Shown here: positions 6,060-19,749 of the stretch, in pieces
Layout: each line of letters opens with the position of its first letter
Position numbering within the stretch: position 1 is the first letter of the stretch
Source: an uncultured Methanosarcinales archaeon
GTDB lineage: Archaea; Nanobdellota; Nanobdellia; Woesearchaeales; CAYVYK01
Direction: 5' to 3'
DNA length: 20,000 bases
Assembly (NCBI GenBank): GCA_964455675.1
Contig: CAYVYK010000001.1
Location: 56,463 to 76,462 of the forward strand
Notes under the pieces: model-generated
What the model saw: the letters and a program-made list of their open reading frames with translations, nothing else
What the model was told of the DNA's origin: nothing
Databases searched by the model: none
Translations under genes and position numbers: made by a program

Positions 6060-7211
6060 ATGATTCGTAAACCTGTAAACAGCGTTATTAATTCGCTTGG
6101 AGCATACTTTCCAAAAAATATTCTGGCAAATGATGATTTTGTGCATATTCTTGCGGCATCCGGAAAGGAGACTTCTGATGCATGGATCAAGGAACGCACG
6201 GGGATTGAGGAACGTCGTGTCTGTAGTCCTGGAGAAAGCGTCGAGTCTATGTCAGCGAATGCTGCTCGTGACTGTGTGAATCGTGCAAGTGACATTCCTC
6301 CAATTGAGTATGTGATTGTTGCAACGAATACTCCTGCGCGAAAGTTCCCAGGTATCGCTCCGCACGTACTTGGAGAATTATCAAATTATCAGGATGCCAC
6401 GGGTAGAAATATTGTATGTGATAATGCGAGTGGGTGCGACATTGAGGCAGGATGCGCAGGGATCAATCATGCCCTCATGGCCGGTGATTCACTGATCAGG
6501 TCGGGATTATACCATTCAGTTCTCGTGATAGGTTGTGATATGCTCTCGTCGATAACGGATTATGCTGATCGCGAGACATGTATTCTGTTCGGTGACGGCG
6601 CGGGAGCGTATCATCTCGTTGCGCATGACGATCTTGGTTTTGGCTTTTTGGGTCATGACATGTCAAGCGACAGTGCCAAGAGAGAGAAGATTTACTGCAA
6701 TGCTCTTGAGGAGAAAGTGATTCTCGCTGAGGCTCTCTGCGTTCTGAGGGAAGGTGTCAAACCCATAAAATCTCTTGGACCAGTTATTCATATGGATGGG
6801 CGTGCAGTCTACAAATATGTTGTTTCTCTCGTAAAGGGATTGATTGCATCATTCCCGGAGAATCATTACTTGAATCCTGATGGTATTCCCTTTGAGCGGG
6901 TGCGATTTGTCACGCCACATCAGGCCAATATGCGGATGATTGAGTCTATTGATGGTGATGTTCCAGGTTTCAGTGGCCGGTGCAGGTTGAACTTGAGATA
7001 TTTTGGGAATACTTCAACCGCTTCGCAGATACTCTCCTTGATGGATATTTTGTATACGGAGGCAGAGCGCGGCGACTATGTCTTTGAGGTCGCGTACGGC
7101 GCGGGGCTTACTGGTGGTGCTGGCCTCTATAGAGTACCCCATCGTCTCGTGGGAAGGATCCCAATTACGGATTTTGTCGCAGAAGGACGAAGGATAATTG
7201 GCCCAAGGTAA
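6060..7211 (+). CDS. fabH: 3-oxoacyl-ACP synthase III (FabH/KAS III family)
   Basis: TSDAWIKERTGIEERR, catalytic Cys in AGCAG, DRETCILFGDGAGA, MDGRAVYK, His in PHQAN, Asn in GNTSTAS, YGAGLT. Confidence 0.93.
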   Translation: MIRKPVNSVINSLGAYFPKNILANDDFVHILAASGKETSDAWIKERTGIEERRVCSPGESVESMSANAARDCVNRASDIPPIEYVIVATNTPARKFPGIAPHVLGELSNYQDATGRNIVCDNASGCDIEAGCAGINHALMAGDSLIRSGLYHSVLVIGCDMLSSITDYADRETCILFGDGAGAYHLVAHDDLGFGFLGHDMSSDSAKREKIYCNALEEKVILAEALCVLREGVKPIKSLGPVIHMDGRAVYKYVVSLVKGLIASFPENHYLNPDGIPFERVRFVTPHQANMRMIESIDGDVPGFSGRCRLNLRYFGNTSTASQILSLMDILYTEAERGDYVFEVAYGAGLTGGAGLYRVPHRLVGRIPITDFVAEGRRIIGPR

Positions 7212-17452: not shown

Positions 17453-17959
17453 ATGCCAAAAGCGCGATCGTCAGACCTGACGGTGAATGATATGCGTATT
17501 CTTGGCGTGCTCTCGCTCGATGCGCGCGCTTCCATTGCAAAGATCAGTAGGGCTACAGGTATCCAGCGTGATAGTGTTGCCTATCGTATGCGCAGGCTCC
17601 TGGAGAAAGGGATCATTGAGGGTTTTTCGATGCAGCTGAATTCGAGTTTTCTCGGGTTCACCACGAGGTCTATCGTGCACTTCGCCTTGCATAACTTCAC
17701 CCTTGAAGATGAGAAAAAGTTTCTATCCGCATTGCGCTCTCACGCGAGTGTCGTAAGCGTTGCAAAGACAACGGGCGCGTTTGATGTGGAGATTGTGATA
17801 GTGGCAAAGTCTCTCATGCATCACGAGGAGGTGCTGAGCGGTTTTCGTCAGAAATTTGCCAAGATTATCAAGGATTACGCAAGCGCTCATGTGTTGGAAA
17901 CAACGAGCAGCGTTGCGGGATTGGTTCCTCATAAAAAATCAACAGGTGGTCATGGATGA
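17453..17959 (+). CDS. Lrp/AsnC family transcriptional regulator
   Basis: LTVNDMRILGVLSLDARASIAKISRATGI...VAYRMRRLLEKGIIEGF (wHTH) plus RAM domain (V...TTGAFDVEIVIVAKS). Confidence 0.92.
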   Translation: MPKARSSDLTVNDMRILGVLSLDARASIAKISRATGIQRDSVAYRMRRLLEKGIIEGFSMQLNSSFLGFTTRSIVHFALHNFTLEDEKKFLSALRSHASVVSVAKTTGAFDVEIVIVAKSLMHHEEVLSGFRQKFAKIIKDYASAHVLETTSSVAGLVPHKKSTGGHG

Positions 17960-18240
17960 AAAAGGGTGTTGAACTGAGTTTACAAACAATTGTGGTAGCG
18001 GCGCTGTCAGTCATCGTGCTAATTGTTGTCATCCTTGTCTTCGGAGGTCAGGTGAGGAAGGCGATATGGGGGTACAATGATGTTTCTAACGCATCCATAC
18101 AGGAATCACAAGGTAAGAGGTGTGCAAGCATCTTCATCCCTGATCGCAAGTGTGTGCAGACGGGTTGTCCTGATGGCTACGCTGAGGTCGATGGAGAGTG
18201 GAAGGATTGCCAAAACGGGTTATGTTGCGAGCGCGAGTAG
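17956..18240 (+). CDS. Small type IV pilin-like protein (class III signal peptide) with Cys-rich C-terminus
   Basis: MKKG|VELSLQTIVVAALSVIVLIVVILVF; six Cys at the C-terminus; ATGA overlap with Lrp. Confidence 0.8.
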   Translation: MKKGVELSLQTIVVAALSVIVLIVVILVFGGQVRKAIWGYNDVSNASIQESQGKRCASIFIPDRKCVQTGCPDGYAEVDGEWKDCQNGLCCERE

Positions 18241-18253
18241 GACCGGTGACACG

Positions 18254-18721
18254 ATGAATAGGAAAGGTAGTGTGTGGTGGGAGGTTCTTGCGCACGTGGT
18301 GATAGATGCGATTATATTATTCCTCGTGATTGGCGCGTTCTTTTTCGTATACCGGAGCTGCACGACAAAGGAGATTACCCAAGAACAGATGGATGGCCAG
18401 CGAATCCTGAGGGATATCGAGGCCTTGCGGCCTGACGAGAGTGTGTTCGTTCCGCTGATTGGCATGGAGTATTCTGTCGTTCTTCATCCTATAGATGGAC
18501 AGCTGAAACCGGGCACATGCAGGGACGATGCTTGCTTGTGTATATATCCAAAAGGATCATCGGATGCGTCCTACTGCGGCACCCTGCCGGCCGTCGTGAA
18601 GAATTGTGATGATGGTCCTTGTATTGAGGGTTTCCAGCGTGTTGAGGTAGGCGATGATCGCGTTGTGACAATTCGCAGGAAGAACAATCGATTAGTGATC
18701 GAGAAGGCACCAAAGATATGA
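18254..18721 (+). CDS. Type IV pilin-like protein (class III signal peptide), Cys-rich
   Basis: True start 18254 (SD GGTGA): MNRKG|SVWWEVLAHVVIDAIILFLVIGAFFFVY with Glu at +5; C..CLC and paired Cys. Confidence 0.78.
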   Translation: MNRKGSVWWEVLAHVVIDAIILFLVIGAFFFVYRSCTTKEITQEQMDGQRILRDIEALRPDESVFVPLIGMEYSVVLHPIDGQLKPGTCRDDACLCIYPKGSSDASYCGTLPAVVKNCDDGPCIEGFQRVEVGDDRVVTIRRKNNRLVIEKAPKI

Positions 18722-19749
18722 GCATGGCAAGAAAGCAAGGTCGGAAAGGCCAGCAGACATTGCTGCTGGAAGCAGTGGTATATGTGATAATCGCAGTGCT
18801 CATACTCTCAATCTTACTGGTGTACGCCAAGCATGTTGGTGAACAGGGCCCGTTTGAGCGAAAGAAGATTGCTATCGATCGGAGCATGACGATCAATAAG
18901 ATGCTTGGTTCGCCAATGAATATCGAGCTAGTCATGCCAAAATCATCAAACATCTCAGAGTACTATGAGAACAATCGTGTGACGATATCCGATGGAGCGC
19001 ATCCGACGGATAATGAGACATATTTTTTCTTCCCCTCGAAGAGTACGCATGTGGTTGAGAGTTCAATTGAGCCTGGGAGGAAAGCGAGGCTCCTTAAGGA
19101 AGGTGTTATGATAAGTGCTTCCCCTGACGGGGGATACATTCCTGAGTCAATCGCCTGTGTAAAGCCTAAGCTTGGGAATATAGAGGGTCTTGTCATTGAT
19201 CCGGCACGGGGGGGTTTTGCTGGTCAGTTCTACAGTGGATTGCCTGCTGATCTTGGAGCTGTAGCGCCAGACAATCATGAGTTCACAGAGGCGGAATTCA
19301 CTCTGGGTATTGCTCTGCAATTTTCAGGAGCGGCTCTTACAAGATCTGCGCAGTCACGCGTCGGACTGAATGAACGGCTTGAAGTCGTGAGGCGATATCC
19401 ATACGCGGCAATTCTAGGTTTTAGGGCGGGGAATTATTCATCGGATGTGGATCCTGTGAAGGCGTATGTGCTTCTTGATAGCGAAAAATACGCGGAGAGT
19501 AGGTATTTGGCATGCCTGATTCTTAACGATTTGAAGAAGAACTTGGCGCAGATTACGAGTATTTCCGTTATTCCGGTAAGTCAGCACTGGATGAATGCTG
19601 ATGAACAATTGCGGATCCTCTCACCAGGTCAGATTGGAGTTGTGCTTGAGATTGGAAACATGCAGCTTCCCTCATCCGTAGTTCGTGATAAGAGCAGGAT
19701 CGTGGACTCAATTCAGTCATCCTTGAGAACTTTTGAGGCGTCCTCATGA
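18718..19749 (+). CDS. Pilin-like protein (class III signal peptide) fused to a degenerate Amidase_3-like domain
   Basis: RKG|QQTLLLEAVVYVIIAVLILSILLVY; the C-terminal half follows the N-acetylmuramoyl-L-alanine amidase pattern (VIDPARGG, DLGAV, TEAEFTLGIA, LTR, LNER, SRYLACLI, VVLEIGN). Confidence 0.75.
   Translation: MSMARKQGRKGQQTLLLEAVVYVIIAVLILSILLVYAKHVGEQGPFERKKIAIDRSMTINKMLGSPMNIELVMPKSSNISEYYENNRVTISDGAHPTDNETYFFFPSKSTHVVESSIEPGRKARLLKEGVMISASPDGGYIPESIACVKPKLGNIEGLVIDPARGGFAGQFYSGLPADLGAVAPDNHEFTEAEFTLGIALQFSGAALTRSAQSRVGLNERLEVVRRYPYAAILGFRAGNYSSDVDPVKAYVLLDSEKYAESRYLACLILNDLKKNLAQITSISVIPVSQHWMNADEQLRILSPGQIGVVLEIGNMQLPSSVVRDKSRIVDSIQSSLRTFEASS

Follow-up and report, generated by a model that had tools for sequence, protein, structure and literature searches.

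Type IV pilins of bacteria can be modular, as in Streptococcus sanguinis, where PilB carries a vWA module and PilC a lectin module (PMC8179133; this and all further citations refer to excerpts of the papers in question). In animals, noncatalytic peptidoglycan recognition proteins (PGRPs) have a zinc amidase fold without activity and serve as peptidoglycan sensors alongside catalytic relatives (PMC1383489, PMC8124813). Among the archaea, Woesearchaeota and Pacearchaeota encode large murein-transglycosylase proteins; bacterial hosts or prey have been proposed for these archaea, which may be episymbionts of bacteria (PMC8204110, PMC9723730). Archaea also make modular peptidoglycan hydrolases, in a survey that counted solely proteins with a recognized wall-binding domain (PMC12352652). 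Here, a gene was analyzed that is located at positions 18718..19749 on the + strand of a 20,000-nucleotide stretch (the window) of contig CAYVYK010000001.1, from an uncultured archaeon of the order Woesearchaeales. It encodes a protein of 343 residues, called the target below, in which a pilin-like N-terminal module (N-module) is joined to an Amidase_3-fold module with Arg in place of both zinc-binding His residues.

The target shares with the modular pilins of S. sanguinis a small N-terminal carrier, a short linker and a bulky module of a non-pilus family, as well as the genomic setting, which consists of other (minor) pilin genes in S. sanguinis and of pilin-like genes in the present locus. 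As with modular pilins, some carriers have no cargo, and the kind of cargo differs from genome to genome. The target differs from the S. sanguinis proteins in being archaeal, in matching neither a bacterial pilin motif nor a curated pilin model, in having a cell-wall hydrolase fold as its cargo, and in that its incorporation into a filament is putative. The main text of the pilin paper has 0 mentions of "amidase," "hydrolase" or "archaea," and the supplement text likewise mentions no amidase cargo and no archaea, as far as these portions of the source extend (PMC8179133). With the noncatalytic PGRPs the target as proposed here has the principle in common that a dead zinc amidase becomes a binding protein. 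Unlike the target, PGRPs belong to the Amidase_2 and not the Amidase_3 fold family, occur in a different domain of life and lack a pilin-like carrier; binding by the target is a prediction. The SLT/GH23 transglycosylases of Woesearchaeota and Pacearchaeota and the surveyed archaeal hydrolases resemble the target as exported, bacterial-wall-directed domains of DPANN or other archaea, read as tools of attachment or attack in the portions of the papers available (PMC8204110, PMC9723730, PMC12352652). The transglycosylases are unlike the target in catalytic family and architecture, and the target genome gave no SLT hit. Because the survey required a recognized wall-binding domain, it would have missed the target family (PMC12352652). 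No description of this family, or of an archaeal pilin-fused Amidase_3, was found in the literature search, which went by titles and the openings of abstracts and did not cover subscription-only papers. The family thus appears to be undescribed in the searched literature, with the target as a putative Amidase_3 pseudoenzyme on a modular pilin-like carrier.

Architecture of the target protein

The original prediction had described an archaeal pilin fused to a peptidoglycan-amidase fold in which both zinc-binding His residues are replaced by Arg. Two modules are indeed present, with a pilin-style N terminus joined to an Amidase_3 fold. The N terminus reads MSMARKQGRKG/QQTLLLEAVVYVIIAVLILSILLVYA, so that a basic stretch with Gly at its end precedes a hydrophobic helix, in agreement with the original prediction, and the linker between the modules comprises residues 136-153 in the AlphaFold model. 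The features of the protein are listed below with their positions in the window.

18718..19749 (+): target open reading frame, 343 residues, pilin-like N-module plus Amidase_3 module without its zinc ligands
18718..18750 (+): basic leader MSMARKQGRKG, residues 1-11, ending in Gly; candidate class III (prepilin-type) signal peptide
18751..18909 (+): long N-terminal helix, residues 12-64, the hydrophobic first part being the putative membrane or filament-core segment (secondary structure from two models)
18910..19167 (+): β-sheet part of the N-module, residues 65-150, up to the conserved Cys147 (models; found as a stand-alone module elsewhere)
19156-19158 (+): Cys147, conserved in the family
19177..19746 (+): Amidase_3-fold module, residues 154-343 (family profile, fold comparison and codon check)
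19207-19209 (+): R164, codon CGG, first zinc-His position
19288-19290 (+): E191, codon GAG, third zinc-ligand position, kept
19339-19344 (+): T208-R209, pocket residues
19423-19425 (+): R236, codon AGG, second zinc-His position
19513-19515 (+): C266, covarying with Cys147
19648-19650 (+): E311, codon GAG, in VVLEIGN, presumed catalytic Glu, kept
19657-19659 (+): N314, pocket residue

The C-terminal module is an Amidase_3 homolog

By its own sequence the target fell below the curated Pfam threshold for Amidase_3 (PF01520). The match covered residues 159-277 with an E value of 0.064 and 13.7 bits, compared with a cut-off of 27 (14.2 bits in the genome scan). Homologs were collected in an exhaustive HMMER search, which returned 135 representatives at E ≤ 1e-3, nearly all of 300-380 residues and most of them matched over the full length; the closest had 41% identity. 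A word-index homolog search gave the target itself as the sole match. The family alignment and the tree comprise 78 full-length members. Among these aligned relatives, 67 match Amidase_3 at E ≤ 0.01, the best at 5e-19. The family profile matched solved Amidase_3 enzymes with E values of 1.4e-18 to 1e-13, in the order Cwp6 (5j72, 1.4e-18), 4rn7, LytH (7tj4), CwlV (1jwq) and AmiA/B/C. The own Pfam score alone is insufficient; at the sequence level, homology to Amidase_3 is secure through the family.

The structural comparison gave the same assignment. The AlphaFold model computed from the family alignment had a mean predicted local distance difference test (pLDDT) value of 93.1 and a predicted template modeling (pTM) score of 0.82. 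Residues 154-343 of the model were superimposed on 4rn7 with Z 21.1 and a root mean square deviation (rmsd) of 2.1 Å over 167 aligned residues. Fourteen Amidase_3 entries were found at Z ≥ 16.5, after which the next fold dropped to Z 11.3. The Foldseek ranking was concordant with the Z-score ranking, with template modeling (TM) scores, normalized to the Foldseek target entry, of 0.70-0.76. The structural match that the original prediction had anticipated was thereby obtained, and the C-terminal module is a true Amidase_3 homolog. The fold is common to the whole domain of the target and to the single-domain enzymes 4rn7 (C. difficile), CwlD (7rag), CwlV (1jwq), LytH (7tj4), Nostoc AmiC2 (5emi) and AmiB (8c0j), with Z 19.5-21.1, rmsd 2.0-2.6 Å and 160-169 residues aligned. 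In the profile alignment, these enzymes and the target family have an identical motif order of DPGHG, E, TR, S-x-H and L-E-x-G, and the consensus of the family alignment reads IDPGHG ... TR ... IS-x-H-x-G ... LEIGN. Of the active-site residues of these enzymes, the target keeps the Glu that is the third zinc ligand and the Glu presumed to be catalytic. It is unlike them in that both His zinc ligands are Arg and its own sequence is under the Pfam cut-off; further differences are an extra conserved Cys pair, the pilin-like fusion, and an archaeal genome without detectable murein synthesis.

Repeated loss of the zinc ligands

We take the metal-binding residues of Amidase_3 to be His-Glu-His, which fits the conserved profile columns. 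Both His positions are Arg in the target, and E191 and E311 are retained; on this point the codons and the family columns agree with what had been read from the sequence originally. Position 164 is His in 55/78 family members and position 236 in 56/78, and the Glu residues at positions 191 and 311 are shared by 68/78 and 69/78 members, respectively. An intact His-Glu-His-Glu set was present in 45 of the 78 aligned members and in 16 of 30 genome-derived ones, so that the family is mostly a presumptive enzyme with His-Glu-His-Glu as its majority state. Whether such fusions recur had been posed as a check in the original prediction; they do, and the fusion is no peculiarity of one gene but belongs to a widespread family in which His-Glu-His-Glu predominates. 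Amidase_3 enzymes are described as zinc-dependent in the available part of the source (PMC6403190). For the target copy we infer from its sequence that it binds no zinc and does not cut peptidoglycan.

Each of the two Arg codons, CGG for R164 and AGG for R236, is at least two nucleotide changes away from any His codon, and the replacements are therefore not single-base errors. The two closest relatives, with 39-41% identity, read K-E-G-D and H-E-S-E at the four positions and form a fully supported group with the target. It had been considered that the target might be a recent degenerate allele, with close homologs all keeping His; ligand loss in the closest relatives, together with the distance of the Arg codons from His, ruled this out. 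On the 78-row tree, which was computed without the two trait columns, 22 changes were required to explain loss of at least one His. Well-supported branches force a minimum of 8 of these changes, and the losses showed no greater clustering than shuffled labels. The residues found at the lost sites are K, G, D, Y, R and E at the first and R, S, N, G and T at the second. Only one other protein among the 78 has Arg-Glu-Arg-Glu (P0008). Since it is placed elsewhere on the tree, beside a His-Glu-His-Glu sister, the combination arose twice. Members that have lost His still retain D161 (27/30), T208 (28/30), R209 (27/30) and E311 (24/30).

A covarying cysteine pair

Cys147 of the linker, immediately ahead of the amidase module, and Cys266, which is part of a helix inside the module, covary perfectly in the family. 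Both are present in 74 of the 78 members and neither in 4, and no member has one alone. Exactly two cysteines were counted in 65/78 members. The pattern fits a Cys147-Cys266 disulfide, which would make the target an extracytoplasmic protein.

One carrier with exchangeable cargo

The family profile matched 255 of the 301 genomes sampled from the order; of the 222 high-quality ones, 192 were matched. The tally of 255/301 takes in seven unpublished genomes (G209, G111, G205, G120, G207, G182 and G244). One match across both modules was found in at least 68 genomes, G209 among them, among the matches listed (142 further matches exist). In a phylum-level sample, 125 of 151 genomes were matched. Almost all matches in other orders of the class were open reading frames of ~110-150 residues covering profile positions 1 to ~135. 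Because these matches span the N-module positions alone, a stand-alone N-module exists. Twenty sampled open reading frames had first been matched by the N-module only; in 11 of them the amidase half was also matched, by a second or full hit that was weaker. Seven of the remaining 9 gave no Pfam hit, and the other two carry a different peptidase each:

L070:101-979, genome G229 (+): fusion of the N-module with Peptidase_M23, E 1.6e-26
L062:8-1507, genome G130 (+): fusion of the N-module with Peptidase_M15_4, E 7.9e-22, with a weak Mab-21-like stretch in between

One carrier module therefore holds three unrelated peptidoglycan-hydrolase families (Amidase_3, M23 and M15_4).

The N-terminal module

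In the family consensus, M-x-K-R-G at the N terminus leads into a hydrophobic helix. Directly before the hydrophobic stretch, a [KR][GAS] pair was present in 74/77 family members, compared with 142/421 (34%) of the other N-terminally hydrophobic open reading frames of the genome. In the target, a basic leader ending in Gly/Ala and an adjoining hydrophobic helix are both found, as RKG/QQTLLLEAVVYVII... In two models the N-module consists of helices at residues 8/9-41 and 45-64 and a subsequent β-sheet of seven strands; folded alone, it reached a pLDDT of 84.8. If the cut falls behind Gly11, the modeled helix would be ~53 residues long. The order of helix and then sheet, as modeled, fits the overall plan of type IV pilins. 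The genome encodes one prepilin peptidase (Peptidase_A24, 40 bits; G000:C8:31313-31645) and six T2SSE-type ATPases. "Pilin-like" is a fair description of the module, with pilin identity unproven.

Genomic setting

The genome is archaeal by RtcB, NAC, L34e and class I lysyl-tRNA synthetase, with 1.72 Mb and 99% completeness. Atlas cluster taxa point to Woesearchaeota (scores 0.88-0.89), as a tentative label. Profile searches of the genome found no transpeptidase and no SLT domain. A single Mur-ligase-like hit was obtained, from a family that was also detected in three archaeal control genomes. The premise of the original prediction that the organism does not make murein was upheld by these searches. 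Action of the target on murein of its own cell was considered and is unlikely, given a genome without transpeptidase or SLT hits and with a single Mur-ligase-like hit. No second family member and no intact Amidase_3 paralog was found in the genome. A strong Amidase_2 (PGRP/AmpD-type) gene is located on another contig (G000:C2:40322-40651; L073:1039-2046, - strand), with an E value of 4.1e-25 and a score above the cut-off. Its product of 335 residues has an ordinary hydrophobic N terminus and a C-terminal extension of ~150 residues of unknown family, and there are no pilin-like neighbors. As a separate observation, the Mur-ligase-like gene (G000:C3:117121-117543) lies ~2.4 kb from the best-scoring T2SSE-type ATPase (E 4.6e-107; C3:119912-121096), which may be coincidence.

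Proposed function and alternatives

The reading that we favor, with a confidence slightly above even, is that the target is a surface subunit of modular, pilin-like build, and that its Amidase_3 head, free of zinc and stapled by a disulfide, binds bacterial peptidoglycan and does not cut it. The N-module, with its basic leader, ~53-residue helix and small β-sheet, would be the carrier. Through it, the protein would be held either in the membrane or in a pilus-like structure that also includes the other pilin-like products of the translationally coupled operon described below. Loss of both zinc His residues, leaving Arg-Glu-Arg-Glu, would most likely abolish hydrolysis of the N-acetylmuramic acid (MurNAc)-L-Ala bond. 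The remaining pocket (D161, E191, T208-R209, E311 and N314) is kept in a well-folded domain, which may still recognize peptidoglycan, and a non-cutting binding head of this kind could attach the cell or its filament to a bacterial wall. The fold, the homology, the residue states, the conserved operon, the modular carrier and the recurrent ligand loss stand as results; export, leader cleavage, the disulfide, inactivity, assembly with the neighbors and the peptidoglycan ligand are the steps that we infer. That binding was retained rather than catalysis is suggested by the repeated loss of His while D161, T208, R209 and E311 were mostly kept. The best indirect evidence for bacterial peptidoglycan as the likely target of the cargo is that the same N-module carries M23 and M15_4 domains in other genomes; the bacterial wall, one of the ligands originally envisaged, gains plausibility from this.

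Several observations weigh against this reading. E191 was retained in just 20 of the 30 members that have lost His, suggesting decay of the pocket in some lineages. We know of no precedent for peptidoglycan binding by a zinc-free Amidase_3 domain. Because the genome has a separate Amidase_2 gene, wall cutting, if needed, need not involve the operon. The remaining points concern the carrier. With a base rate of 34%, the KG-type motif is low in information. Fold searches with the N-module gave a best Foldseek E value of 0.09 and a best VIA-align Z of 4.8, the latter for the long helix alone; an archaeal pilin (8fk7, Z 4.7) and the pseudopilin EpsI (2ret, Z 4.6) were level with unrelated helices. 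No curated pilin model in Pfam or NCBIfam matched the target, the N-module or the neighboring proteins, and the N-module profile matched neither a PDB sequence nor a Pfam family. No assembly ATPase or platform gene was found near the operon, the two T2SSE matches on the same contig being >60 kb away and no search having been aimed at the platform protein. As an identity, the "pilin" of the original prediction was not established, given undecided fold searches, the lack of a curated model match and the missing ATPase nearby.

The alternative that survives best, though we regard it as unlikely, is that the module is a structural relic. It would bind nothing and be kept as a folded spacer or scaffold for a surface complex, with the Arg residues filling the metal site and pairing with E191 and E311. 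This would account for ligands that disappeared repeatedly while the gene was kept, for the heterogeneous replacements at both His sites, for the absence of E191 from 10/30 ligand-lost members, and for an N-module that is more widespread than the amidase part and often cargo-free. Simple decay is harder to reconcile with the pocket residues other than His, which are retained at nearly equal rates in ligand-lost and intact members, and with a mean pairwise identity of the amidase module that is barely lower in ligand-lost than in intact members (0.272 versus 0.301). Two independent origins of Arg-Glu-Arg-Glu also look more like a preferred solution than like random decay.

The same recurrence can be read in a more far-reaching way, which we consider rather doubtful. 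The double His-to-Arg change would then be adaptive and convergent in two lineages, those of the target and P0008. With a guanidinium pair held by Glu in the place of zinc, the domain would act as a lectin that needs no metal and binds the carboxylate-rich stem peptide of peptidoglycan. Presented at the end of a pilus-like filament, it would select bacterial hosts by wall chemotype, while His-Glu-His-Glu, M23 and M15 heads would cut instead. For the Arg residues as such, a simpler reading than the Arg-lined, anionic-glycan-binding pocket of the original prediction is that they occupy the vacant metal site with their side chains and form pairs with the retained Glu.

It is improbable that the target is the membrane-tethered partner of a hydrolase. 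As in S. aureus LytH or CwlD, the N terminus would then serve as a signal anchor and stay uncleaved, and the dead domain would regulate or position another hydrolase, in the manner of the degenerate LytM proteins that control bacterial amidases. LytH (7tj4) and CwlD (7rag), both of them, according to their PDB titles, Amidase_3 enzymes that are tethered to the membrane and depend on a partner, rank high among the structural matches; fold searches did not confirm a pilin fold, no pilus ATPase is encoded nearby, and the Amidase_2 gene could provide the partnered hydrolase. That gene lies on another contig and outside any pilin-like operon, however. A simple anchor would also leave the basic-Gly/Ala boundary in 74/77 members unexplained against the base rate of 34%, as well as the ~53-residue helix followed by a β-sheet, which fits the general pilin layout, and the same N-terminal style in all operon neighbors. 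Finally, it is very improbable that the target is still an enzyme, in which the Arg pair with E191 and E311 supports metal-independent hydrolysis or the domain acts on another amide substrate (own envelope glycoconjugates or poly-γ-glutamate): the presumed catalytic E311 is kept, Arg-Glu-Arg-Glu recurs, and the lower-ranking structural matches include related folds that act on other substrates (e.g. the poly-γ-glutamate hydrolase PghP, Z 11.3), but Amidase_3 is described as zinc-dependent, other ligand-lost relatives have Gly, Ser or Asp at these sites, which are unable to replace a metal, and we know of no metal-free Amidase_3 member.

The favored reading, of a surface subunit that binds the bacterial wall, bears on the question of which hosts, bacterial or archaeal, Woesearchaeota-type DPANN archaea have. 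One carrier with three wall-hydrolase folds, or dead versions of them, in a conserved operon is direct genomic evidence that many such archaea touch bacterial walls. Within the family, active and inactive versions of a single enzyme fold also form a natural series, useful for the study of transitions from hydrolase to binder. The added value of the target gene itself is modest, as it is one of many ligand-lost members.

The operon and neighboring genes

The target belongs to a run of genes on the + strand with short overlaps, which starts with an Lrp/AsnC regulator and continues with proteins of 94 and 155 residues, the target, and proteins of 153, 159 and 371 residues. Its members within the window are, besides the target:

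17453..17959 (+): Lrp/AsnC-type regulator, probably the first operon gene, stop overlapping the next start (ATGA); Pfam HTH_24 3.6e-10, HTH_AsnC-type 4.6e-9, AsnC_trans_reg 9e-5
17956..18240 (+): small pilin-like protein, 94 residues, MKKG/VELSLQTIVVAAL, Cys-rich tail, candidate major subunit; 10 other loci have a homolog at this upstream position, no curated family
18254..18721 (+): pilin-like or membrane-anchored protein, 155 residues, stop overlapping the target start (ATGA); positional homologs in loci L031 and L032
19746..20000 (+): 5' part of the next pilin-like gene, 153 residues in full, continuing past the window, start overlapping the target stop (ATGA); orthologous family with GRxYPGxID signature

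A basic-Gly/Ala plus hydrophobic N terminus was found in every operon gene product except the regulator. In 28 of 30 related loci, the family member is followed immediately by at least one pilin-like open reading frame in the same orientation, and five neighbors in the window have homologs at matching relative positions in other loci. A complex prediction for the soluble parts of the target (residues 42-343) and of the downstream 153-residue protein (residues 30-153) gave a score of 0.00 and a mark of 0.32; it was run without controls and speaks neither way.

The surface operon may be co-transcribed with, and controlled by, its own Lrp/AsnC regulator (17453-17959, +). Small pilin-like proteins with Cys-rich C-terminal tails, of 82-94 residues, were observed three times, at 17956-18240 of the window and at L002:11524-11772 and L002:11775-12029 (e.g. 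CVQTGCPDGY...CQNGLCCERE). As candidates for the major subunit, they would have heads knotted by disulfides. A divergent neighboring cluster of similar genes contains a protein of 1000 residues with a pilin-like N terminus (L002:5977-8979, - strand; G000:C1:78976-81978). Its sole match was to a type III secretion translocon model and was sub-threshold (E 4.6e-4, 19 bits versus a cut-off of 540). Elsewhere in the window, at 6060-7208 (+), there is a bacterial-type FabH-like gene (ACP_syn_III, 2.3e-22), in line with the bacterial fatty-acid genes reported in Woesearchaeota in the available part of the source (PMC8204110).

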